From Dehalococcoidia bacterium (lineage in GTDB: Bacteria; Chloroflexota; Dehalococcoidia; UBA2979): a stretch of DNA of 64,000 nucleotides. Location: positions 288,001 to 352,000 of the forward strand of contig CAXXDN010000001.1 of NCBI GenBank assembly GCA_963667465.2, read 5' to 3'. A program made the translations under genes and the position numbers. Of the stretch, positions 11,508 through 28,651 are shown piece by piece. The notes below the pieces were generated by a model that worked only from the letters and a program-made list of their open reading frames with translations, had not been told where the DNA came from and did not search any database. The stretch's first letter is position 1. Each line of letters begins with the position of its first letter.

Positions 11508-13991
11508 ATGCCGCCGTCAGCCGCAGCGCCGCCGCTCTCCGGCATCCGCGTGCTGGACCTGACCACCGCGCGCTGCGAGATCGGCGGCAGGATCCTCGCC
11601 GACCTCGGCGCCGAGGTGCTGAAGATCGAGCCGCCCGAGGGCTGCGACGCGCGCCGCATGCCGCCCTTCGGGGACGGCCGCGAGGGCGAGCCGGACGACT
11701 CGCTCTACTGGGCCGCCTACGGCGCGAGCAAGCGCAGCGTCGTGCTCGACCTCACCTCGGACGAGGGCCGCGCGGGCCTGCGCGCGCTGGCCGAGGGCGC
11801 CGACGTGCTGCTGGAATCGTTCGCGCCCGGTCACCTCGCGGCGCTCGGGCTCGGCTACGAGGACCTGCACGCGCTCAACCCCGCGCTCGTCTACGCCTCG
11901 ATCACGCCCTTTGGGCAGACCGGGCCGGACGCACAGTCGCCGGCGACCGAGCTGACGATCGAGGCGGCGGGCGGGCTGCTCTCGCTGCAGGGCGACGGCG
12001 ACCGCCCTCCCGTCCCGGTCGGCTACCCGCAGGCCGGGCTGCACGGCGGTGCGCAGGCCGCCGCCGACGCCGTCGTGGCGCTCGTCGAGCGCGACCGCTC
12101 CGGCCGCGGCCAGCACCTCGACGTCTCGATGCAGGCCTGCATGGTCTGGACGCTGATGGACGCGAGCGGTTACCCGCCGAACGAGGGCGGCGACAAACCC
12201 GGCTACGGCGACGACCGCGCCGAGCCCCGGCCTCCCCACCCCTCCGGCCTCCACCTGCCGCGCGTGGTCGCGGCCGCCGACGGCCACGTGATCACCACGA
12301 TGGGCGTCAACCTCCCGCAGCGCATCGCACTCAACGAGACCATCGCCTGGATGAAGAAGGACGGCGTCGAGTTCCCCGAGCGCCTGCGGTCGATCGACTG
12401 GGAGCGCTGGCACGAGCAGTTCGCCGACCCGAGCGCCGTGCCGGCGGAGACGCTGGCACTGATCGACGAGGCGGTCCTGCTCGCGGTCGAGTTCATCGGG
12501 ACCAGGCCGAAGCGCGAACTGAACGAGCGCGCCGTGGCGAGCGGGGCGCTGATCGCGCCGATCATGACCGCTGCCGATCTGCTCGCGGACCCGCAGCTCG
12601 CGGATCGCGACTACTGGAGGGAGGTCGCGGGCCGCCCGCACCCGGGACCGTTCGCCAAACCGAGCCGCACGCCGCTGCGCAGCCCGCAGCCAACCCCTGC
12701 CCTCGGCGAGGCGAACTCGCTGCTTGGCGAACCGCGCCGGCCAGCGCCAGCCGTACGCGCCGCAGCGAGCGCCGTCTCGACGCGTACGAGGGCGTTCGAG
12801 GGGCTGAAAGTCGCCGACTTCTCGTGGGTCGGCGTCGGTCCGCTGCTCGGCAAGGCGCTGGCCGACCACGGCGCGACCGTGGTGCGCGTCGAGACGGCGA
12901 AGCGCATCGACACCCTGCGCGGGATGGGGCCGTTCAAGGACGGCGTGCGGGACGTCAACCGGGCGCAGTTCTTTGCCAACTTCAACTCCTCGAAGCTGGG
13001 CATGACGCTGGACCTGTCGAGCGAGGGCGGCCGCTCCGCCGCGCGCAGACTCGCCGCCTGGGCGGACGTGGTCCTCGAGAGCTTCACGCCCGGGACGATG
13101 GAACGGCACGGGCTGGGCTGGGAGGCGCTGAGCCAGGGCCGCGACGATCTGCTGATGGTGCGCACCTGCCTGCGAGGGCAGACCGGTCCGGAGGCGGCGC
13201 TCACCGGCTTCGGCAGCCAGGGCGCCGCGCTGGCCGGGCTGCACGGCGTGACCGGCTGGCCGGACCGCCCGCCCGACGGGCCCTACGGCGCCTACACGGA
13301 CTTCATCAACCCGCGCTTCGGCCTCGCGGTGATTGCGGCGGCGCTCCGTGAGCGCGCCCGCAGCGGACGGGGCCAGCTGCTCGACATCTCGCAGGTCGAG
13401 GTCGGCATCCACTTCCTCGCGCCGCTCGTCCTCGACTACGCGGTCAACGGCCGCGTGGCGCCGCCCGCGGGGCACGACTCCCGCACCGCTTGCCCGCACG
13501 GCGTCTACCGGGTCGCCGGCGCCGAGCGCTACATCGCGATCGCCTGCGAGACGGCGGAGCAGTGGCGTGCGCTGCGCGATCTCGGCGGCCTCGAGGGCTT
13601 CGACGGCGCCGGGTTCGAGCACTACGAGGGCCGCCACGCCGCCCGCGATCGGATCGACGAGGCGCTTCGCGCCTGGTGCGCGGGGCACGACGGGCACGCC
13701 CTCGCCGCGCGGTTGAAGGCAGCGGGCGTCCCGGCCTCGGCGGTGCTGCGGGCGAGCGACCTCCACCGCGACGCGCAGCTCGCGCATCGCGGCTTCTTCG
13801 TCACGCTCGACCACCCGGAGATGGGTCCAACGCCCTACGACGGCCTCGCGACCAGCTACTCCGAGACGCCCGGCACGCCCCGCAAGCCCGCGCCGCTGCT
13901 AGGCGAGGACACGCACTACGTGCTCACAGAGCTGCTCGGCCACTCCGCCGAGGAGGTGGCGATCCTCGCGGCGAGCGGGGCGCTCACCTAG
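11508..13991 (+). CDS. Double-domain class III CoA transferase (CaiB/BaiF)
   Basis: Two CaiB repeats: LSGIRVLDL..LADLGAEVLKIEPP and FEGLKVADFSW..LADHGATVVRVE. Confidence 0.9.
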   Translation: MPPSAAAPPLSGIRVLDLTTARCEIGGRILADLGAEVLKIEPPEGCDARRMPPFGDGREGEPDDSLYWAAYGASKRSVVLDLTSDEGRAGLRALAEGADVLLESFAPGHLAALGLGYEDLHALNPALVYASITPFGQTGPDAQSPATELTIEAAGGLLSLQGDGDRPPVPVGYPQAGLHGGAQAAADAVVALVERDRSGRGQHLDVSMQACMVWTLMDASGYPPNEGGDKPGYGDDRAEPRPPHPSGLHLPRVVAAADGHVITTMGVNLPQRIALNETIAWMKKDGVEFPERLRSIDWERWHEQFADPSAVPAETLALIDEAVLLAVEFIGTRPKRELNERAVASGALIAPIMTAADLLADPQLADRDYWREVAGRPHPGPFAKPSRTPLRSPQPTPALGEANSLLGEPRRPAPAVRAAASAVSTRTRAFEGLKVADFSWVGVGPLLGKALADHGATVVRVETAKRIDTLRGMGPFKDGVRDVNRAQFFANFNSSKLGMTLDLSSEGGRSAARRLAAWADVVLESFTPGTMERHGLGWEALSQGRDDLLMVRTCLRGQTGPEAALTGFGSQGAALAGLHGVTGWPDRPPDGPYGAYTDFINPRFGLAVIAAALRERARSGRGQLLDISQVEVGIHFLAPLVLDYAVNGRVAPPAGHDSRTACPHGVYRVAGAERYIAIACETAEQWRALRDLGGLEGFDGAGFEHYEGRHAARDRIDEALRAWCAGHDGHALAARLKAAGVPASAVLRASDLHRDAQLAHRGFFVTLDHPEMGPTPYDGLATSYSETPGTPRKPAPLLGEDTHYVLTELLGHSAEEVAILAASGALT

Positions 13992-14023
13992 AATCACGAA
14001 CCACGCAGGTGGCCGGGGGTGCG

Positions 14024-14566
14024 ATGACCAGGGTCGAGGGCGAGTACGACATCGAGGCCGTGCGCGCCGAGTGGATCGGCAGGAAGACGCCGCTCTACCA
14101 CGGCCGCTACCCGGTCGAGTACGACCCGATCCGCCGCTACTGCCACATGGTGGAGGACGACAACCCGCTGTTCCTCGATCCCGCGTACGCGGTGACGACG
14201 AAGTGGGGCGGCGTAATCGTGCCGCCAGTAATGACCGACTACTTCGCGGGCAGCGGCGCCTGGCCCGAGGAAGACGAGCCCGCGCTCATCCTCCAGGTGC
14301 CGACGCGCGGCGACCGCACGATCAACCTCAGCATCAGTTGGGAGTTCATCCAGCCCGCCCGCATCGGCGACCGCCTCTCGCGGCAGACGGAGATCGAGGA
14401 GATCTACCAGAAGCCGACGCGGCTCGACCCGAAGTCGATCTGGATCGCCGCGGCGACGACGATCTTCAACCAGGACGGCGAGGTCGTGGCCATCGGCCGG
14501 AACACGATGGTCGCCCACCGCCGGCCCGAGGAGTTCGCGGCCGAACTCGAGGGGAACGGCGGATGA
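14024..14566 (+). CDS. MaoC/FAS1-like dehydratase, N-terminal-type hot-dog domain
   Basis: IRRYCHMVEDDNPLF, VPP, WEFIQPARIGDRL. Confidence 0.8.
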   Translation: MTRVEGEYDIEAVRAEWIGRKTPLYHGRYPVEYDPIRRYCHMVEDDNPLFLDPAYAVTTKWGGVIVPPVMTDYFAGSGAWPEEDEPALILQVPTRGDRTINLSISWEFIQPARIGDRLSRQTEIEEIYQKPTRLDPKSIWIAAATTIFNQDGEVVAIGRNTMVAHRRPEEFAAELEGNGG

Positions 14567-15021
14567 GCGGCGAGCCGCGCACGCAGCGCTATTGGGACGA
14601 CGTCACCGCCGGCGAGGACGTCGAGGGCTTCACGTTCACGCTCGGCTGGACGGAAATGGCGAAGCAGGTCAGCGGCTCGCAAGACTTCCACAAGGTCCAC
14701 CACGACTTCGAGTTCGCGCGTGAGGGCGGACACGAGACGATCTTCTACAACACGGGATTCACGCGCGGCTGCCTCGGACGCCTGCTCACGGACTGGATGG
14801 GCCCGGAGGGCTGGATCCGGACGTTCGGCTTCCAGATGCGGCGCATGAACACGCCCGGCGACGTGATGTCCGTGAAAGGCCGCGTCACCGGCACGTCCGA
14901 GGGCGACGACCCCGAGACGGGCCTCGTCGACCTCGAGATCTGGATCGAGAACACGCGCGAGGGCGTGACGACGCCGGGCACTGCCACGGTGCTGCTGCCG
15001 CGGCGCGCTGAGGGGACATAG
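14563..15021 (+). CDS. MaoC family hot-dog dehydratase
   Basis: RYWDDV..GE, DFHKVHHD, LTDWMGP, PGD; ATGA coupled. Confidence 0.8.
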   Translation: MSGEPRTQRYWDDVTAGEDVEGFTFTLGWTEMAKQVSGSQDFHKVHHDFEFAREGGHETIFYNTGFTRGCLGRLLTDWMGPEGWIRTFGFQMRRMNTPGDVMSVKGRVTGTSEGDDPETGLVDLEIWIENTREGVTTPGTATVLLPRRAEGT

Positions 15022-15025
15022 CACG

Positions 15026-15505
15026 ATGGCCAACGCAACGAAGACCGAGATCGAAGCAGGCGGGACCTACTTCCCGCAGCCCGTCGCCTACCCGGCCACG
15101 ATGAACGACGACCTCGACAAGCCGTTCATCGAGGGCACGCAACGCGGGGAGCTGTGGGTGCAGTTCTGTACCGCCTGCGAGCACTTCCAGTGGGGGCCGG
15201 AGTGGCTCTGCCACCGCTGCCTCAGCTATGACCTCGAGTGGCGGCAGGTGGAGGGGCGCGGGCGGATCTACTCCTGGGAGCGGGTCTGGCACCCGGTGCA
15301 CCCGGTGCTGCGGGAGGCCGTCCCCTACGTCGTGGTCGTCGTCGAACTGCCACACGCCGACGACATCCGCCTGGTCGGCAACCTGCTCGGCGATCCCGAG
15401 GAGGAGGTCGTGATCGGCAGCGCCGTCGAGGCCGTCTACGAGCACCACGCGGACGCCGACCCGCCGTTCACCCTCGTCCACTGGTCACGCCTCGAGAGCG
15501 AGTAG
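15026..15505 (+). CDS. Zn-ribbon/OB-fold (DUF35, ChsH2-like) protein
   Basis: CTAC..CHRC, GRIYSW, VPY, RLVGN. Confidence 0.85.
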   Translation: MANATKTEIEAGGTYFPQPVAYPATMNDDLDKPFIEGTQRGELWVQFCTACEHFQWGPEWLCHRCLSYDLEWRQVEGRGRIYSWERVWHPVHPVLREAVPYVVVVVELPHADDIRLVGNLLGDPEEEVVIGSAVEAVYEHHADADPPFTLVHWSRLESE

Positions 15506-15552
15506 CAGCCGGACGCGCGAATCGACCGAAGCGACAGCGAGAGGAGCGACGC

Positions 15553-16713
15553 ATGGACTTCCAGATGCCGGACGACGTCGTCGAATTCCGGGAGCAGATC
15601 CACGACTTCATCCGCCGGCACCGTACGCCGGAACTGGAGGAGGAGATCGCCGGGCACCACCTGCACGGCTACGGCCCGGCCGCCGAGACCTTCCTGCAGG
15701 CGCTCGCCGACGAGGGTCTGCCCTCGATCGCCTGGCCCGAGGAGTACGGCGGACGCGGCAAGGGCGCGCTCTACCTCTGGATCCTCTCCGAGGAGCTCGC
15801 ACGCGAGGGCATGCCCTGGGACACGCTCACCTTCAACTCCGTCAGCCCGACGATCATGCGCCACGGCAGCGAGGAGCAGCGGCTTGAACTGCTGCCGAAG
15901 GTCCTCACCGGCGAGATCCGCTTCGCCCTCGGCTACACCGAGCCGAACGCCGGCACCGACCTCGCGTCGCTGCAAACTCGCGCCGTCCGCGACGGCGACG
16001 AGTGGGTGCTCAACGGCCAGAAGATCTACACCTCCTCGGCGCACCTCGCGACGCACGTCTGGCTGGCCGCGCGCACGGACCCGGACGCGCCGAAGCACCG
16101 CGGCATCTCCACCTTCGTGGTGCCGCTGAGCACCCCGGGGATCACCGTGCGCCCGCTCTGGGTGATGGGCGAAGGCCGCACCAACGAGACGTTCTACGAG
16201 AACGTGCGCATCCCCGCCGACGCACTCGTCGGCGAGGAGAACCGCGGCTGGTACATCGTCACCGGCGCGCTCGACCTCGAGCGCGTCGCGATCGGCACCT
16301 ACCGCCCGCTGGAGCGCAGGGTGCAACACATCATCTCCTACCTCGTGGCCGAGCGCGGCGATCTGCTGGACGACCCGGCCACGCGCATGGCCGTCGCCGA
16401 GGCCTCGATGCGCGTCGAGGTGGGGCGCGCGCTGTCGACCAACAACGCGGCGATGGTGCACAACGACCTGGTGCCGACGATGGAAGCCGCGATGTCCAAG
16501 ATCTGGAAGGGCGACTCCAGCGAGCGCATCCACGACTCCTTCATGGACATCCTCGGCCGCAGCGGCGGGCTGCACGAGTCGAACGAGGACGCCCCGCTCG
16601 GCGGGATGCTTGAGGCTGGCTGGCGCAGCGACCCGCCCGGCCGCTTCGCAGGCGGCACCAACGACATCCAGCGCCGCGTGATCGCCACGCGCGGCCTGCA
16701 GCTGCCGCGATAG
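15553..16713 (+). CDS. Acyl-CoA dehydrogenase (likely catalytic subunit of a heteromeric ACAD)
   Basis: GYTEPNAGTDLASL, NGQKIYTS, TNETFY, LDLER, GGTNDIQR. Confidence 0.9.
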   Translation: MDFQMPDDVVEFREQIHDFIRRHRTPELEEEIAGHHLHGYGPAAETFLQALADEGLPSIAWPEEYGGRGKGALYLWILSEELAREGMPWDTLTFNSVSPTIMRHGSEEQRLELLPKVLTGEIRFALGYTEPNAGTDLASLQTRAVRDGDEWVLNGQKIYTSSAHLATHVWLAARTDPDAPKHRGISTFVVPLSTPGITVRPLWVMGEGRTNETFYENVRIPADALVGEENRGWYIVTGALDLERVAIGTYRPLERRVQHIISYLVAERGDLLDDPATRMAVAEASMRVEVGRALSTNNAAMVHNDLVPTMEAAMSKIWKGDSSERIHDSFMDILGRSGGLHESNEDAPLGGMLEAGWRSDPPGRFAGGTNDIQRRVIATRGLQLPR

Positions 16714-16723
16714 GAGGCGCACA

Positions 16724-17809
16724 ATGGACCTCCGGCCGAGCGAACTACAGGAAATTCTCCGCACCAGCGCCACCGAATTCTTCGAGCGCGAGGTGAGCTT
16801 CGAGCGGATCCGCGAGATCGAGGCGGCGAACCGCCCCGACGAGCAGTTGCAGGGCCAGCTGACCGAGCTGGGCTGGAACTCGCTGGCGATCTCCGAGGAC
16901 TACGGCGGCCAGGGCGGGACCGTGCTCGACGCGGGCGTGCTGATCACCCAGATCTGCCGCGCCGCGCTGCCCTCGCCGCTCGCCAGCACCCTCGTCGGCG
17001 CGGTCACGATTGAGCGCCACGGCGACGAGGCGCTGAAGACCTCGCTGCTGCCGCAGCTCAACAGCGGACTCACGATCTCGCCCGCGCTGCTCGAGGCGTC
17101 GGACTCGCTCTACGGCCCGGTCACGGCGGAGTACGCCGGCGGCGCGGTCACGGGCGAGAAGCGCTTCGTCGAGTTCGGCGAGACCAGCGACGTGCACCTT
17201 GTTGCTGCGATGCGTGACGGCGCGCCGGGCCTCGCCGTCGTGCGCCGCGACCAGCCGGGCGTAACGGCCCGCGACACGCGCACGATTGGCGCGCTGCCGC
17301 AGGCGACCGTCCACTACGACGGCGCCGTGGCCGAGGCCTGGATCGAGGGCGCGGACGCCATCGAGACGATGCGCCGCCTCGGGGCGGCGGTCGCCGCGTT
17401 CGAGACCTACACCTACGCGCAGAAGGCGCTCGACCTGACGGTCGACTACGTGCAGATGCGGGTGCAGTTCGGGCAGCCGATCGGCGCGTTCCAGATGGTG
17501 CAGATGCGCTGCGCGGACATGGCGACGATCGTCGAGGGCTCACGCTTCCTCGTGCACGAGCTGCTGTGGCAGATCGACGAGGGCCTCGACACGCGCCGGC
17601 AGGTCGCGGTGGTGAAAGCGGTGACGGCGAAGATGGCCCCGCAGGTCCTGCAGGATTGCCACCTGCTGCACGGCGGCATCGGCTACATGCAGGAGTACGA
17701 CCTGCACTTCTTCACCCGTCGCGGCCGCGACGCCGCACTGCGCTGGGGCAGCGCCCGCGAGACGATGAACATCGTCACCGAGGAGGCCTTCGCCGCCGCC
17801 TCGGCGTAG
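16724..17809 (+). CDS. Acyl-CoA dehydrogenase-like partner subunit
   Basis: RVQFGQPIGAFQ, LHGGIG; degenerate N-terminal FAD motif; adjacent to a canonical ACAD. Confidence 0.85.
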   Translation: MDLRPSELQEILRTSATEFFEREVSFERIREIEAANRPDEQLQGQLTELGWNSLAISEDYGGQGGTVLDAGVLITQICRAALPSPLASTLVGAVTIERHGDEALKTSLLPQLNSGLTISPALLEASDSLYGPVTAEYAGGAVTGEKRFVEFGETSDVHLVAAMRDGAPGLAVVRRDQPGVTARDTRTIGALPQATVHYDGAVAEAWIEGADAIETMRRLGAAVAAFETYTYAQKALDLTVDYVQMRVQFGQPIGAFQMVQMRCADMATIVEGSRFLVHELLWQIDEGLDTRRQVAVVKAVTAKMAPQVLQDCHLLHGGIGYMQEYDLHFFTRRGRDAALRWGSARETMNIVTEEAFAAASA

Positions 17810-17899
17810 CGGGGAGGGCGGTGCTGCCTATTCTCGTTTCGGAGCGATTTCGAAAATAAGACCGCCGATTGTTTTCGTTACCGCAAGTAAGGGCAGCAA

Positions 17900-19249
17900 C
17901 TATGGAAGCCGTCCGCGAAGCGCGGCGGCGGCGAGGCGTCGTGATGAATCGGCGCTTCCGTCGGAGAACGCGACACCTTCCTGGCGTAGCAAGTCTGTCG
18001 GATCACGAGTGTCCGCGGGATCACTCCAACGGAAGCCCTCAGCGATCTGACCTTCAGCCGTCAGCACGCGGTGTGCGGATGAGCAATCGTCGCATGCCGT
18101 AATGTGCCCGCCTACCGCTCGTGCGGAGCTATCGATGGCATCCGCAAGGTCACCGTAGGTGGTCCACTCGCCTGGCTCCAACCGCTCCAGCAAGGTATGC
18201 AGGCCAGACCAGTCGCGGGCTGCCGACGCTGCACCGAGACCAGCCAGAGTAGAGAGGGTCTTGCCATTCTCGGTCTTCCAAGCCCGTGGGCCAGAGATGA
18301 CCGCAGGGCGCTCGCCGGTCGCCCGCTCGACAATCTCCTTCGCCAGCCCAGTCGGACTCCAATCTTCACCGAGCCTCCACCTCAGCGGACGGACCGAGTC
18401 ATTCCTCCAAGCCACCAAGCCTCGCTGTGGATCCTCCCTTATCCACTCCTCAACGCGGCTACGCCAGGCAGGCCGAATCCCTCTCAACTCGAGCTCAAGT
18501 AACTCGCCATCGTCAATGGCACCTTCGGCAACAAGCGTTGCGACAGCATTCCGTTCGCGGCGCGTGCGAACGCGCTCGTCGGCCGCCCGAAGTTCCGCCT
18601 GCCCCGGGGAGACCGTGAAGTCCTCAACGTCCGCCACAGGCCATGTCTGCGAGACGGTGAGCACGAGGTCGTTCGCCGTGCGGTAGGCGTTGAACTCGAT
18701 CAGGGAGACCTTCAGGCCCATCTCTGTCAACCACGCCACACTCGCTGTGACCTGGGGTGGAAAGCTAGCCGCCATCAGCACGATCCGCGGCCGACGAAGC
18801 AGCTCAGTATCGAGCTCACCGCCGACATGCTCGTTGATCCGGGCAAGGGCTTCCTCAGCCGACACCGTTTCATCGGTGACCTTCGACAGGTATGCGGCGT
18901 GAGCAACTGCCAGCGTCTGCGGGGTGAAGCGGCTGGCGAACGCGGCGTACTTGATCGCCTGCATCTCGACGGTGTCCGGGGCCGGGCCGCGCTTCAGTTC
19001 GGCCAAGACGAGATAGCCGTCCGCATCGAGCCCGAGCAGGTCGAGGCGGTCGGCCTCGCGCCCTCTCCTCGACCACCACGCATCGAACTCGAAGGTCACG
19101 ATGTAGACGCCGTCGCCGAGGATCTCAGGATTCTTGCGCACCCACTCCTGCAAGTGGGCCCGCTCGCGGAAGCCCGCTTCCGCGAGGCTGATCTGCGTTG
19201 CGGGCGTGGCAGCCCCGGGCTTGACCGTGAAGACCAACTCGCCAGGCAT
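17900..19249 (-). CDS. Fusion: NucS/DUF91-like PD-(D/E)XK nuclease + RAMA-like domain + MGMT/ATL-like DNA-binding domain
   Basis: E..LQEW..NPEILG, RLDLLGLD, LVLAELKRG, QAIKYA; middle SPTGLA..SGPRAW..GKTLSTL; C-term GEWTTYGDLA..ARAVG..AHRVL..LRQEGV. Confidence 0.75.
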   Translation of the reverse strand: MPGELVFTVKPGAATPATQISLAEAGFRERAHLQEWVRKNPEILGDGVYIVTFEFDAWWSRRGREADRLDLLGLDADGYLVLAELKRGPAPDTVEMQAIKYAAFASRFTPQTLAVAHAAYLSKVTDETVSAEEALARINEHVGGELDTELLRRPRIVLMAASFPPQVTASVAWLTEMGLKVSLIEFNAYRTANDLVLTVSQTWPVADVEDFTVSPGQAELRAADERVRTRRERNAVATLVAEGAIDDGELLELELRGIRPAWRSRVEEWIREDPQRGLVAWRNDSVRPLRWRLGEDWSPTGLAKEIVERATGERPAVISGPRAWKTENGKTLSTLAGLGAASAARDWSGLHTLLERLEPGEWTTYGDLADAIDSSARAVGGHITACDDCSSAHRVLTAEGQIAEGFRWSDPADTRDPTDLLRQEGVAFSDGSADSSRRLAAAALRGRLP

Positions 19250-19333
19250 GAAGCAACACCCCCTGCTCCCGGCGCAGGCTACGCAAATGCCGAGGGGCTG
19301 TCACTGGCGCTCGGCGAGCACCCGCCCGGATCG

Positions 19334-20161
19334 TCAGCCGAGCTCCTCCGCCGTCCGATCGCCTGCGTCGTAGTCGGCGAACAGCTCGTCGTAGTGCTCC
19401 TGCAGCACGTCCCGGGCGTCGGGGTGGGTGAAGATGAAGCGGCGGTTCTCGCGGGCGCCCTGCAGCAGGCGAGGGATGAACGCCTCCGGGGGCGGCGCCT
19501 CGATGCGGGGCGGGGCGAAGTCGTCGTCGGGACCGCCGTAGCGCTGCTGGCGGACGCGCACGGCCCTGCGGATTTGCGTGTCCATCCGGCTCGGGCACCA
19601 GCACGAGACACCGATGCCCTCGGCCGCGAGCTCGTGTCGCAGCACGTTCGAATAGCCAACGACGGCGTGCTTCGCGGCGGTGTAGATGCCATTGACGTTC
19701 TGCCGCCCGACGAGGCCGGACATCGAGGAGGTGAGCACGACCTGCGCCGGTCCCTCCTGCTCGCGCAGCAGCGGCAGAAACGCCTGCACGCTGTGGATCG
19801 CGCCCCAGAGGTTGACCGCGAGCACCCACTCCCAGTCCTCGCTTGTCGCCTCGGCCAGCGGTGTGCTCTTCATCACCCCGGCGTTCTCGAACAGCACGAG
19901 CCCGCTGCGCTCGGCGCCAAACTCGGCGCGCGTGCGCCCGGCCAGCGCATCGACCGAGGCGCGGTCCGCAATGTCCGTGCGCACGGCGATCGCCTCGCCG
20001 CCGCTCTCGCGGATCGCCGCGGCGACAGCCTCGCCCGCGTCGCCGTCGATGTCGGCGGCGACGACGCGCATGCCGTCCGCCGCACAGGCATGGGCGAGTG
20101 CGCGCCCCGCGCCGCCGCCCGCACCCGTCACCACCGCCACGCTGCCCATGAAATCCTGCAT
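19334..20161 (-). CDS. SDR family oxidoreductase
   Basis: TGAGGGAG, ENAGV, YTAAK. Confidence 0.88.
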   Translation of the reverse strand: MQDFMGSVAVVTGAGGGAGRALAHACAADGMRVVAADIDGDAGEAVAAAIRESGGEAIAVRTDIADRASVDALAGRTRAEFGAERSGLVLFENAGVMKSTPLAEATSEDWEWVLAVNLWGAIHSVQAFLPLLREQEGPAQVVLTSSMSGLVGRQNVNGIYTAAKHAVVGYSNVLRHELAAEGIGVSCWCPSRMDTQIRRAVRVRQQRYGGPDDDFAPPRIEAPPPEAFIPRLLQGARENRRFIFTHPDARDVLQEHYDELFADYDAGDRTAEELG

Positions 20162-20259
20162 CGCGCACCCCCACGTACGTCGCCCGAGCCTACGGCCTTT
20201 CCACCTCACCCTCACCCGCTCCCGCCAGGGAGCGGGCACAGGAGGGCGGACGGAAGAAG

Positions 20260-21087
20260 CTAGCGGCCCTCGAAGTGTGGGTCGCGGCGCTCGAGGAAGG
20301 AGCGGAAGCCCTCCTGCGCGTCTTCGCTGCCGAGCAGGCCGATCTGCGTGGTCCATTCGTATTCGAGGAAGTGGGACATCGGCAGCTCGCTCGCACGCAT
20401 CAGCATGCGGCGCACACCGGTGTAGGCGAGCGGCGGGCCGGCGGCGATCTCGCGCGCGTAGCCGAGCGCGTGCTCCAGCAGCTCGTCGTCCGGGACGACC
20501 TCGGTGGCGAGCCCGAGCTCCAGACAGCGCGCGGCGTCGACCAGATCGCCGCTGTAGAGCAGCTCGATGGCGCGCGCGTGTCCGACGATGCGCGGCAGCC
20601 AGTAGGCCGCGCCGTAGTCCGCGGCGAGCCCGCGCTTGATGAAGACCGACCCCATGCGCGCCGATTCGCCGAGGAAGCGCACGTCGCAACAGAGCGCGAG
20701 GCCGAAGCCCGCTCCGACGGCCGCGCCGTTGACCGCCGCGATGATCGGCACGTCGCAGCGCGCGAACGTCTCCGCCAGCTCGCCGGAGAGCCCCCGGCGG
20801 TCCATCCGGTGCTGGCGCGGGGCGTCCCCACCTTCCTGCGCGGCAAGGTCGCCGAGGTCGGCGCCCGCGCAGAAGCCGCGGCCCTCGCCGGTGAGCACCA
20901 GCGCGTGTACCTCGTCGCTCTCGTTCGCCTCGGCGACGGTGTCGAGCAGCAGCTCGACGGCGTGCCCGCTGAGGGCGTTCATCGCCTGCGGGCGGTTGAG
21001 GCGAGCGAGCAGCACGCCAGCCTCGATCGAGGTCAGCAGCGGCGCCTCCTCCGTGCCGTCGGGCGGATCCGTCGTCCGTGCCACCAT
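20260..21087 (-). CDS. Enoyl-CoA hydratase/isomerase family
   Basis: LNRPQAMNAL, FCAGADL, AVNGAAVGAG, EGFRSFLERRDP. Confidence 0.9.
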   Translation of the reverse strand: MVARTTDPPDGTEEAPLLTSIEAGVLLARLNRPQAMNALSGHAVELLLDTVAEANESDEVHALVLTGEGRGFCAGADLGDLAAQEGGDAPRQHRMDRRGLSGELAETFARCDVPIIAAVNGAAVGAGFGLALCCDVRFLGESARMGSVFIKRGLAADYGAAYWLPRIVGHARAIELLYSGDLVDAARCLELGLATEVVPDDELLEHALGYAREIAAGPPLAYTGVRRMLMRASELPMSHFLEYEWTTQIGLLGSEDAQEGFRSFLERRDPHFEGR

Positions 21088-23157: not shown

Positions 23158-23270
23158 CGCCCGTCTCCCGTCCTGCGGCGCCCCTCGCACGCCTCGCAGG
23201 CAAGCCTAGCGCGTGGGGCGGCGAGCGACGTGGCGCAGTTGTGCGAAGATGGAGGCCGCCGGAGGCAATC

Positions 23271-23510
23271 ATGGTGACCAGACACTTCCGCGCCAGGTAC
23301 TCGAAGGGCGTGCTCGAACCCCTCGAGACGATCGACCTCGAGGAGGGGGCCGAGGTGTCCCTGTCCATCAAGGAGGAGCCCTCACCGGATGAAGCCGGGG
23401 AAGCATTCCGGCGCTCTGCTGGAAGTTGGGGTGGCCAGGATCCCGACGAGTTGATCCGGATGCTCTACGAGTCCCGCATTACCGGTTCGCGGGAGCCCCC
23501 GGACCCGTAG
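23271..23510 (+). CDS. AF2212/DUF104-like antitoxin, copy 1
   Basis: ARYSKGVLEPLETIDLEEGAEV; RBS GGAGG. Confidence 0.8.
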   Translation: MVTRHFRARYSKGVLEPLETIDLEEGAEVSLSIKEEPSPDEAGEAFRRSAGSWGGQDPDELIRMLYESRITGSREPPDP

Positions 23511-23526: not shown

Positions 23527-23769
23527 ATGGTGACCAGGCACGTCCGCGCCAGATACTCGAAGGGCGTCCTCGAACCCCTTGAGGCGATCGACCTCGAGGA
23601 GGGGGCCGAGGTTTCGCTGTCCATCGAGGAGGAGCCCTCGCCGAAGCACGACCCGGAGGCGATGAGGGCCGGTGCCGGCGGCTGGGTCGGCCAGCATGAT
23701 CCCGAGGAGCTCAAGCGAACGATCTACGAGGCTCGCATCACAGGTTCGCGGGAACGGCCAACTCCCTAG
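23527..23769 (+). CDS. AF2212/DUF104-like antitoxin, copy 2
   Basis: ARYSKGVLEPLEAIDLEEGAEV; directly upstream of PIN gene. Confidence 0.8.
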   Translation: MVTRHVRARYSKGVLEPLEAIDLEEGAEVSLSIEEEPSPKHDPEAMRAGAGGWVGQHDPEELKRTIYEARITGSRERPTP

Positions 23770-23773
23770 CGCC

Positions 23774-24166
23774 GTGGAGCACATGGTCGACACGGACTGG
23801 GTCATCGACTACATGCACCAGGTGTCGCATGTAGTGGACCGCGTTGCAGAGTTGACCCCGGCCGGAATCGGACTGAGCGTGATTTCGCTCGCTGAGCTCT
23901 ACGAGGGTGTGCAAGGGGATGTGGACTCGCAGCGCAGTGAGCGCGAGTTGGACGCCTTCCTTGAGCGCGTGTACTTGCTAGACCTCGATGAGGGGACCTG
24001 CCGAATCTTCGGCAGGGAACGCGCCCGCCTGCGGTCGGCCGGAATGCTTATCGGCGACCTCGATCTCCTGATCGGCGCAACCGCGTTGCGGCACGGGCTC
24101 ACCCTGCTCACCAACAACCGACGCCACTTCGACCGGATCGAGGGGCTGGCGATCGAGTCGGTCTGA
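23774..24166 (+). CDS. vapC: VapC PIN-domain toxin
   Basis: VDTDWVID, SLAELYEG, DLLIGATAL, TNNRRHF. Confidence 0.88.
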   Translation: MEHMVDTDWVIDYMHQVSHVVDRVAELTPAGIGLSVISLAELYEGVQGDVDSQRSERELDAFLERVYLLDLDEGTCRIFGRERARLRSAGMLIGDLDLLIGATALRHGLTLLTNNRRHFDRIEGLAIESV

Positions 24167-27973: not shown

Positions 27974-28300
27974 CTACGGCAGTGGCGAGTAGTCGGTCGG
28001 CGCGAGGATGTCCGAGCGGATGCGAGTCACGATCGCGCCGTCGCGCTCCGAATCGGCGCGGACCTGCCGCCACTCCTCGTCGTCCCGGAACGCGGCCCAC
28101 TTGCGGTCGCGGTCGGCCATGTCCTCGAACTTCATGAGGTAGACGAGCTGGTCGCTCCAGCCGCCGTGCGCGTAGGTCCAGAAGCCGACGACGTCCAGAC
28201 CGTGGTTGGCGAAGATGCGCAGCGTGTGGTCGCGGAAGCGGCGATGGAGCGCGCCAAGCCTGCCCGGGGCCGCCTCGTAGATTCGCAGTTCGTAGATCAT
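27974..28300 (-). CDS. NIPSNAP family protein, copy 1
   Basis: MIYELRIY, RFRDHT, VVGFW, LVY, PTDYSP. Confidence 0.9.
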   Translation of the reverse strand: MIYELRIYEAAPGRLGALHRRFRDHTLRIFANHGLDVVGFWTYAHGGWSDQLVYLMKFEDMADRDRKWAAFRDDEEWRQVRADSERDGAIVTRIRSDILAPTDYSPLP

Positions 28301-28324: not shown

Positions 28325-28651
28325 CTACGGTAGCGGCGAGTAGTCCGTCGGCGCGAGGATGTCGGAGCGGATGCGCGTGGTGAGCGAGCCGTCGCGGTGC
28401 GACTCGGCGAGGACACCTCGCCACTCCTCGTCGGCCATGAACGAGGCCCACTTGCGGTCGCGGTCGGCCATGTCCTCGAACTTCATGAGGTAGACGAGCT
28501 CGTTACTCCAGCCGCCGTGCGCGTAGGTCCAGAAGCCGACGACATCCAGCCCGTGGTTGGCGAAGATGCGCAGCGTGTGGTCGCGGAAGCGGGCATTGAG
28601 CGCGCCGAGCTTGCCCGGAGCCGCCTCGTAGGTGCGCAGTTCGTAGATCAT
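28325..28651 (-). CDS. NIPSNAP family protein, copy 2
   Basis: Near-identical 108-aa tandem paralog. Confidence 0.9.
   Translation of the reverse strand: MIYELRTYEAAPGKLGALNARFRDHTLRIFANHGLDVVGFWTYAHGGWSNELVYLMKFEDMADRDRKWASFMADEEWRGVLAESHRDGSLTTRIRSDILAPTDYSPLP

Follow-up and report, generated by a model that had tools for sequence, protein, structure and literature searches.

A gene for a protein of 449 amino acids lies on the reverse strand of a 64,000-nucleotide stretch from a Dehalococcoidia bacterium (contig CAXXDN010000001.1, positions 288,001 to 352,000; this whole stretch is referred to as the window). A sequence-only reading had described the product as a stand-alone NucS-like nuclease fused to two candidate readers of modified bases, a RAMA-like domain and an alkyltransferase-like (ATL) domain. 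The genome is about 70% GC, so that long open reading frames (ORFs) arising by chance are a concern, and several spurious ones overlap this gene. It is nevertheless a real gene and not a chance ORF of high-GC DNA. Of 8000 candidates that were scored, 421 were homologues at E ≤ 1e-3, and many of these extend over the full length of about 450 residues. In a library of 1.84 billion proteins, 2819 representative clusters passed the same threshold, of which 202 also passed E ≤ 1e-30. The ratio of nonsynonymous to synonymous substitution rates (dN/dS) against syntenic orthologues was 0.17–0.22. The AlphaFold2 model had a mean predicted local distance difference test score (pLDDT) of 90.7, with three domains confidently modelled. 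It is these homologue counts, the dN/dS values and the quality of the model that establish the gene as real.

The start is common to the homologues (MPGELVFTV...), and a purine-rich stretch lies immediately 5′ of the gene. All the motifs quoted in the sequence-only reading are present in the translation, namely E54, D70-L-L, E84-L-K86, Q97AIKYA, SPTGLA (298–303), SGPRAW (319–324), GKTL (329–332), TYGDLA (364–369), ARAVG (376–380), and SAHRV (391–395). When the protein was searched against PDB sequences, with the single sequence and with the whole profile, weak matches to MGMT (E 0.022) and NucS (E 8.7e-4) were obtained and none at all for the middle domain; hence, structure comparison was needed. 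A homodimer prediction scored 0.08 against a mark of 0.42, which is uninformative either way. The coordinates of the domains, and of the neighbouring features discussed later, are collected in the table.

Table. Features of the 449-residue protein and its surroundings (positions in the window unless a locus is named).
Feature	Position	Strand	Description or basis
Whole gene	17900..19249	−	449 codons + stop (stop 17900–17902), ATG start
N-terminal nuclease domain, residues 1–210	18620..19249	−	NucS/EndoMS-type (RecB-like) PD-(D/E)XK fold
Catalytic core, D70...E84-L-K86...Q97-x3-Y101	18947..19042	−	Conservation and NucS alignment
Long linker helix, residues ~211–244	18518..18619	−	DSSP helix 215–242, lower pLDDT (66–85)
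Middle domain, residues 245–340	18230..18517	−	Divergent RAMA-like fold, inserted helix ~260–277
ATL domain, residues 345–449	17903..18217	−	MGMT C-domain fold without acceptor cysteine
H382-x3-C386-x2-C389	18083..18106	−	Invariant in family, absent from the canonical Ogt of the host
S391-A-H-R-V395	18065..18079	−	Counterpart of PCHRV, Cys to Ala; alignment with host Ogt
Operon	11508–17809	+	Double CoA-transferase III, two MaoC-like hydratase ORFs, DUF35/OB-fold, two acyl-CoA dehydrogenases
SNase-domain protein, 281 residues	22345–23190	−	Hydrophobic N terminus, Cys-rich acidic tail
AF2212-like small protein, then PIN-domain protein	23241–23510, 23672–24166	+	VapBC-type pair
Two tandem 108-residue ORFs	27974–28300, 28325–28651	−	85% mutually identical
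RES-domain toxin and 239-residue partner	L014:8086–9477, L015:10756–12153		Directly beside the orthologue in G011, G012
476-residue protein	L017:14393–15823	−	In G016; C-terminal NucS_C, E 3.2e-13

Domains of the protein and their exchange among relatives

The nuclease domain was compared with known structures using VIA-align. NucS of P. abyssi (2vld_A) aligned with a Z of 13.3 and a root-mean-square deviation of 1.9 Å over 108 residues, model residues 29–197 falling onto NucS residues 126–233, and DNA-bound EndoMS (5gke_A) aligned with a Z of 13.1. Foldseek, a check proposed in the sequence-only reading, likewise returned the NucS fold (E 2.4e-4), and the fold matches of this domain also included the nucleases SduA (Shedu) and HamA (Hachiman). 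In the PDB profile search D70, E84, K86, and Q97 lined up with the D-ExK-Q of P. abyssi NucS. None of these four residues varies across 62 sequences, of which at least 90% also retain Y101. Of 26 family members, 19 are matched by Pfam NucS_C, with E 9.8e-5 for the best, but the model stays below cut-off for the 449-residue protein itself. The fold match and the aligned catalytic residues bear out the earlier assignment of a NucS-like PD-(D/E)XK domain.

Five PADLOC models named PDC-S11 also matched the N-terminal domain (E 3.1e-45 to 4.4e-24), the best over residues 16–225. The match is limited to profile positions 3–225 of 347–379; the C-terminal halves of the models match DUF4268, and two DUF4268-bearing relatives, P0128 and P0293, do cover these halves. 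According to the accessible part of a 2026 bioRxiv preprint, PDC-S11 of E. coli ECOR34, renamed Madara, consists of a NucS-like nuclease and an EVE-like domain, restricts several Tevenvirinae as well as wild-type T4 (glucosyl-hydroxymethylcytosine) but not T4(C), and loses defence when its nuclease motif carries D63A (10.64898/2026.09.05.749240). The epithet "stand-alone, uncharacterised" given in the sequence-only reading has to be narrowed to this extent, as the family of the nuclease module has, in what is accessible of that report, an E. coli member characterised in 2026. It may be noted that our comparison with Madara was made through the PADLOC PDC-S11 models only.

The middle domain, modelled alone, had a pLDDT of 92.3. 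A VIA scan of 48,161 PDB representatives, made with no prefiltering by Foldseek, placed the only two solved RAMA domains first and second: mouse MPND (7ydt_A) with Z 7.4 and CcrM (6pbd_B, residues 278–356) with Z 7.1. SAND domains came next (Z 5.1 and 4.2), and all others were at or below 3.7. The Z of the RAMA match was 8.2 when the domain was taken in the full-length model, and the top Foldseek match was the MPND-DNA complex 7ydw_A (prob 0.89). A profile of 71 middle domains was aligned by hhalign with 12 canonical Pfam RAMA domains drawn from genomes of the same class, giving P 9.3e-5 over 72 columns; SPTGLA was paired with SPSAAA and GPRAW with NGWxxW, with one inserted helix. The residues W269, W281, W291, G320, and W324 are conserved. 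The Pfam RAMA model (PF18755) did not match the 449-residue protein at E ≤ 1; it matched one of 26 relatives (E 0.084), DUF4357 matched two of the 26 (E 0.068), and a PF18755 search of the host genome found nothing. As the Z values are moderate and the Pfam model is without a match, we use the label RAMA-like, and the comparisons point to a divergent member of that fold.

The fold calls behind the "two modified-base readers" of the sequence-only reading stand, but the case for modified-base reading by the RAMA part is weakened. CcrM and MPND are given as the only solved RAMA domains in the available text of PMC9963953, where in both structures the domain touches the DNA backbone non-specifically, and the binding of MPND was not raised by N6-methyladenine (6mA). 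Reading of 6mA by RAMA is described as unconfirmed in the part of PMC11037411 at hand.

The C-terminal domain matched PF01035 with 32.4 bits, above the cut-off of 27 (E 8.3e-8). The same model matched 22 of the 26 scanned relatives, that is, all 22 long members, the other four being short forms. The best VIA match was S. pombe Atl1 bound to DNA (3gx4_X, Z 11.5), followed by Atl1 alone (3gva, Z 10.2) and V. parahaemolyticus vpAtl (2kif, Z 9.6); MGMTs gave Z 7–9.7, so that ATL structures ranked ahead of most true methyltransferases. At the position of the acceptor cysteine, 34 ATL-bearing homologues have Ala (27), Gly (5), Val (1), or Pro (1), and never Cys. The claim of an ATL domain therefore holds on the PF01035 score, the Atl1-DNA fold match, and the Ala in place of the acceptor. 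Since the acceptor cysteine is replaced, the domain is unable to accept alkyl groups. A canonical Ogt with PCHRV intact is encoded elsewhere in the genome, and hence the ATL fusion is not the only alkylguanine-handling protein of the host.

In the alignment with Ogt, Y365 corresponds to the flipping Tyr and R377 to the Arg finger, the residues used by AGT and Atl1 for nucleotide flipping, and H393-R394-V395 is canonical. Y365 is kept in 33 of 34 family members, and so is R394. H351, H382, C386, and C389 are each invariant in all 34 ATL-bearing homologues, and the H-x3-C-x2-C motif replaces the loop that precedes PCHRV in the canonical Ogt of the host. Together, H351 and the H-x3-C-x2-C motif may bind a metal in a structural role, as a feature peculiar to this subfamily of ATL domains.

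The modules are exchanged at both ends of the protein. After the nuclease and the middle domain, relatives either end (at about 345 residues) or continue with ATL, DUF4268, DUF5655, or a canonical RAMA domain. Because the occupants vary in this way (ATL, DUF4268/EVE-like, RAMA), the C-terminal position looks like that of a specificity sensor. At the other end, the nuclease is replaced in P0238 by a TIR_2 domain (residues 12–152), after which the linker, RAMA-like, and ATL segments align to residues 205–445 of the 449-residue protein. TIR domains are typical immune effectors. Among 120 listed relatives of the TIR region of P0238, 24 carry TIR_2 with PF01035 and two carry TIR_2 with DUF4268. The TIR_2, RAMA-like, and ATL proteins are about 408 residues long (P0238 and 23 further listed clusters), and those with TIR_2 and DUF4268 are P0293 and P0299. 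No PADLOC model matched P0238. In P0255 another N-terminal domain stands ahead of the same linker, RAMA-like, and ATL module; it had seemed GIY-YIG-like by eye, which Pfam did not support even at E ≤ 5. Interchangeable effectors joined to interchangeable C-terminal modules are, in the accessible part of PMC12191111, the pattern of modification-dependent restriction enzymes and other immune proteins.

Two apparent chimeric remnants were also seen. In P0236 a fragment of an acyl-CoA dehydrogenase is joined to an ATL domain, and in P0232 a fragment of an integrase is joined to a partial RAMA-like domain and ATL. They suggest that in related genomes such loci have been rearranged, or else misassembled.

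Locus history and surroundings

The codon usage of the gene is less GC-biased than that of its flanks, as the sequence-only reading had stated: GC content at third codon positions (GC3) is 0.74 against 0.90–0.95 in the neighbouring genes, and overall GC is 0.636–0.656 against about 0.69–0.756 in the flanks. GC3 falls along the gene, from 0.84 in the nuclease domain to 0.65 in the middle and 0.58 in the C-terminal 100 codons. This gradient fits the mosaic domain identities found between orthologues, the ATL domain being 90% identical to that of the orthologue in genome G002 and the RAMA-like domain 67%.

When 18 other genomes of the genus were examined, seven had intact full-length copies, three had disrupted ones (interrupted by stop codons in one genome, broken in frame in another, and divided into two parts in the third), five had partial or distant matches only, and three had none. 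In four of these genomes the gene is at the same chromosomal site, beside the same acyl-CoA dehydrogenase operon. The orthologue directly follows the gene for the 361-residue dehydrogenase in G001 and G002, and a few extra genes, a RES toxin included, lie between the two in G011 and G012. The compared flanking proteins are 89–97% identical to those of G001 and G002, against 66% (G001) and 76% (G002) for the 449-residue protein. In terms of synonymous divergence (dS), the gene at the shared site gave 0.97–1.10 against 0.12–0.23 for two flanking genes. Old alleles at a young locus, kept under purifying selection, indicate allele replacement or recombination at the locus and not decay.

The closest named relatives come from metagenome-assembled genomes of Dehalococcoidia/Chloroflexota. 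Full-length forms are also found in Actinomycetota (Brachybacterium, Gordonia, Microbacterium, Streptomyces, and others) and in Acidimicrobiales. Contigs of another study contain an intact copy at about 97% DNA identity, with a single 1-base gap in an intergenic spacer; base differences were about 3% in the gene against about 1.3% in the flank. An identical copy was seen in contigs of other runs as well. The stretch 16500–20500 is present whole in six public runs from three studies, one of which is possibly the source, and no RNA run is listed among those containing it. A sponge metagenome label is borne by one of the six runs (the possible source) and by a seventh run that holds 84% of the sampled words. 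A scan of IMG/VR with the patterns used found no relatives. In the phage collection one record matched, over the N domain only. The plasmid collection gave 110 records with the nuclease, or the nuclease and middle region, only; the ATL-bearing form was not found in that collection, and no record covered at least 80% of the query.

Genes for two acyl-CoA dehydrogenases adjoin it on one side; its neighbours on the opposite side encode a short-chain dehydrogenase and an enoyl-CoA hydratase. No methyltransferase is among these neighbours, in agreement with the sequence-only reading. The operon that ends beside the gene resembles side-chain β-oxidation clusters, and the nuclease gene is wedged at its end. 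The 281-residue SNase-domain protein of the window is probably a secreted nuclease. Within the genus, orthologues have a RES toxin pair and a transposase nearby in G011 and G012, and a Fic protein in G013, G016, and G018. In G012 it is a DDE transposase that lies beside the orthologue. In G016 the 476-residue NucS_C protein, a candidate nuclease, is about 4 kb from the orthologue and adjoins the Fic protein.

Proposed function and alternatives

On balance we favour, with somewhat better than even confidence and by analogy with characterised systems, the view that the gene encodes a single-polypeptide, methyltransferase-free, modification-dependent (type IV-like) restriction endonuclease in which a disabled repair domain serves as the sensor. 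The architecture is that of type IV enzymes, with a nuclease and a sensor domain and no cognate methyltransferase among the neighbours. In the proposed mechanism, the C-terminal pair of RAMA-like and ATL domains would be the sensor module. The RAMA-fold domain would clamp the duplex backbone, and the Cys-less ATL domain would probe the bases, probably flipping a non-canonical purine into the O6-alkylguanine pocket as Atl1 does. Productive binding would then license the NucS-type domain, joined by the long helix, to cut foreign DNA nearby. The anti-phage function, the dependence on modification, the base flipping by ATL, and the coupling of sensing to cleavage are what we infer here from the analogy.

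Defence neighbours were looked for at 20 ATL-bearing loci of other taxa, hand-picked for long flanks from 80. At least one defence or restriction match occurred among the six nearest ORFs (three on each side) at 12 of the 20, a count obtained with a crude GC3-based ORF caller and no background control, and with some loci being kin. The matches were SoFic (twice), HEC-07, ZacA/ZacB (twice), a dGTPase with PDC-S04, a type III methyltransferase with DrmD, a type I restriction-modification trio, McrBC with TIR, Mrr, WYL, and PDC-S35 with a C5 methylase. Three of the 20 were ambiguous and five were without a defence match; one of these five, L105, has a relaxase and a transposase. The survey for association with defence islands named in the sequence-only reading was favourable elsewhere, but the gene in the window is not in such an island.

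Several further observations count against a restriction function. In the window the gene sits between genes of lipid and CoA metabolism, its upstream dehydrogenase neighbour is on the same strand 84 bp away, and the nearest defence-like genes are the VapBC pair, over 4 kb off. No promoter-like site was found, and the one weak terminator-like site was no more than is seen in shuffles. Within the ATL domain, no more than 7 of 34 members have Arg at the finger position occupied here by R377 (Gln in 14, Ile in 6, Met in 3); because the finger is so poorly conserved, canonical base flipping may not be general in the family. RAMA domains are, in the accessible parts of PMC11037411 and PMC9963953, without confirmed modification-reading activity. 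The host itself has DNA methyltransferases (three matches to PF01555, one to PF00145, and a weak one to PF02384), so that a broad specificity for 6mA or 5-methylcytosine would be self-harmful; such broad methyl-dependent specificity is unlikely. Lastly, the function of the fusion as a whole is argued by analogy.

The sequence-only reading had offered a damage-directed endonuclease alongside the restriction function, and this is the main rival. In the cell's own DNA, the ATL domain would locate O6-alkylguanine or purines with bulky adducts, and the NucS-type nuclease would incise beside them, a nuclease-coupled alternative to the known pathway in which ATL-bound lesions are handed to nucleotide excision repair. 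In its favour, the best C-domain fold match is Atl1 bound to damaged DNA (Z 11.5), Y365, R377, and H393-R394-V395 are canonical in this protein, and the closest fold to the nuclease belongs to an enzyme of repair, NucS/EndoMS. An AlkD-type DNA_alkylation protein (L070) and an AlkZ-like fragment (L044) near homologues speak for it as well, and to that extent against restriction. However, genes for repair tend to be stable and to pass on by vertical descent, and the present gene has a dS of about 1.0 against 0.12–0.23 in its flanks, mosaic domains, and a GC3 atypical for the genome, and is disrupted in three and absent from three of the 18 genus genomes. The same sensor module is fused to TIR in 24 of the 120 listed proteins, defence or restriction neighbours occur at the 12 loci mentioned above, and the host keeps its canonical Ogt. 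The nuclease domain is, moreover, homologous to Madara, an anti-phage protein by experiment in the accessible part of its report. With Madara homology, TIR swapping, allele turnover, and defence neighbours elsewhere all favouring, if indirectly, a type IV-like anti-phage nuclease, we regard damage repair as quite improbable.

A defence nuclease could also be triggered by something other than base modification, the RAMA-like and ATL domains being general DNA-binding or positioning modules. The nuclease might respond to ends or structures of DNA, in the manner of Shedu, to a protein of the phage, or to a sequence motif, the host DNA being protected in some other way. SduA and HamA among the fold matches of the N domain are in line with this, as are the poorly conserved Arg finger and the invariant H-x3-C-x2-C in place of the Ogt loop, by which the pocket may be remodelled; the non-specific backbone binding by the solved RAMA domains, in the available text of PMC9963953, agrees too. 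Against it, the only tested relative of the nuclease module, Madara, is modification-dependent as far as the accessible text goes, and the swapping of ATL, DUF4268/EVE-like, and RAMA domains, linked to base or modification sensing in the literature or in the sequence-only reading, at the C-terminal position fits a specificity sensor. The residues of the alkylguanine pocket are also kept (Y365 and R394, as given above). We consider a trigger of this kind unlikely. As for the gene being a remnant, decaying or selfish, that serves no function in this genome today, the disrupted copies in related genomes and the chimeric remnants P0232 and P0236 might suggest it; but the frame is intact, the catalytic and structural invariants are all kept under a dN/dS of 0.17–0.22, and an intact copy about 97% identical is present in contigs of another study's runs, making this explanation very improbable. 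Modification-dependent restriction is the reading that we retain.

Modification-dependent restriction enzymes are modular, with SRA, EVE/PUA, YTH, winged-helix, and inactive EndoIII domains as sensors, and the repertoire is thought to be incomplete. The present family would add an alkyltransferase-like domain to it. More tentatively, and with rather less than even confidence, a Cys-less ATL domain with a RAMA clamp could be an immune sensor of a class not recognised before, directed at phage purines that are hypermodified or substituted, and plugged into different effectors: the NucS-like nuclease, TIR (24 protein clusters at the least), and further domains at the N terminus. Candidate targets of such a sensor are O6- or N6-substituted, 2-amino, or 7-deaza purines. 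If true, this would be the second case of a disabled base-flipping repair enzyme acting as an anti-phage sensor, after the END nucleases, in which inactivated EndoIII/Ogg1 repair domains sense hypermodified phage DNA according to the available part of PMC12191111. The protein could then also serve as a reagent or tool enzyme for detecting or mapping modified bases in phage DNA. Confirmation would point to a broader theme of inactivated DNA-repair base-flippers turned immune sensors, and to barely explored purine modifications in the phages of Chloroflexota and Actinomycetota hosts.

Comparison with known systems

None of the papers listed by our literature searches described an ATL-type sensor in a nuclease of this kind. 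In a library that leaves most subscription journals outside, the records listed gave no link of alkyltransferase-like proteins to phage defence or modification-dependent restriction. The protein was therefore compared with the systems that it resembles in part.

With NucS/EndoMS it has in common the nuclease fold and the D-ExK-Q catalytic constellation. The N-terminal mismatch-binding and dimerisation domain of NucS is without a counterpart, so that we speak of a NucS-like module and not of a NucS orthologue. A bona fide orthologue was ruled out, only NucS residues 126–233 being aligned and the NCBIfam NucS equivalogs giving 14.6–17.1 bits for this protein against cut-offs of 216–252.

The likeness to Madara/PDC-S11 is closer. 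The N-terminal NucS-like PD-(D/E)XK domains, of about 225 residues, are homologous, and both systems consist of a single gene without a methyltransferase, with the nuclease first and the sensor last. The sensor differs, being DUF4268/EVE-like in Madara, as described in the accessible part of its report, and RAMA-like plus ATL here. Membership of PDC-S11/Madara as modelled was rejected, since the C-terminal DUF4268/EVE-like half is absent from the 449-residue protein.

The END nucleases offer the nearest parallel for the sensor. In the available part of PMC12191111 a disabled base-flipping repair domain, fused to a nuclease, senses non-canonical phage bases, and the tested END-Mag, a NucS-like PD-DExK nuclease with an inactive Ogg1, targets phages with modified G. 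The sensor here is, in contrast, of the MGMT/ATL helix-turn-helix type and not a helix-hairpin-helix (HhH) glycosylase, and an extra RAMA-fold domain stands between nuclease and sensor. No HhH glycosylase was matched in Pfam, and none was among the fold-search matches listed for the protein. As the defining iEndoIII domain is absent, the protein is not an END nuclease but an analogue only.

A RAMA fold joined to a restriction-type nuclease is also known from restriction contexts, such as the C-terminal domain of CcrM and the GIY-YIG-RAMA and RAMA-Mrr-NTPase fusions noted as candidates in the accessible part of PMC11037411. The middle domain of the present protein differs from these in being too divergent for the Pfam model, in its inserted helix, and in its position, since in every case either another C-terminal module follows it or the protein stops there. 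The solved ATL proteins Atl1 and vpAtl, for their part, have in common with the C-terminal domain the fold and the loss of the acceptor cysteine, and this protein has the Tyr, Arg, and HRV residues. They are single domains of about 100–110 residues, in contrast to the fusion with a nuclease, and the present family has the invariant H-x3-C-x2-C insertion motif and a variable Arg finger. The protein is thus not NucS proper, not PDC-S11/Madara as modelled, and not an END nuclease, and yet it is these that it most resembles in its manner of working.

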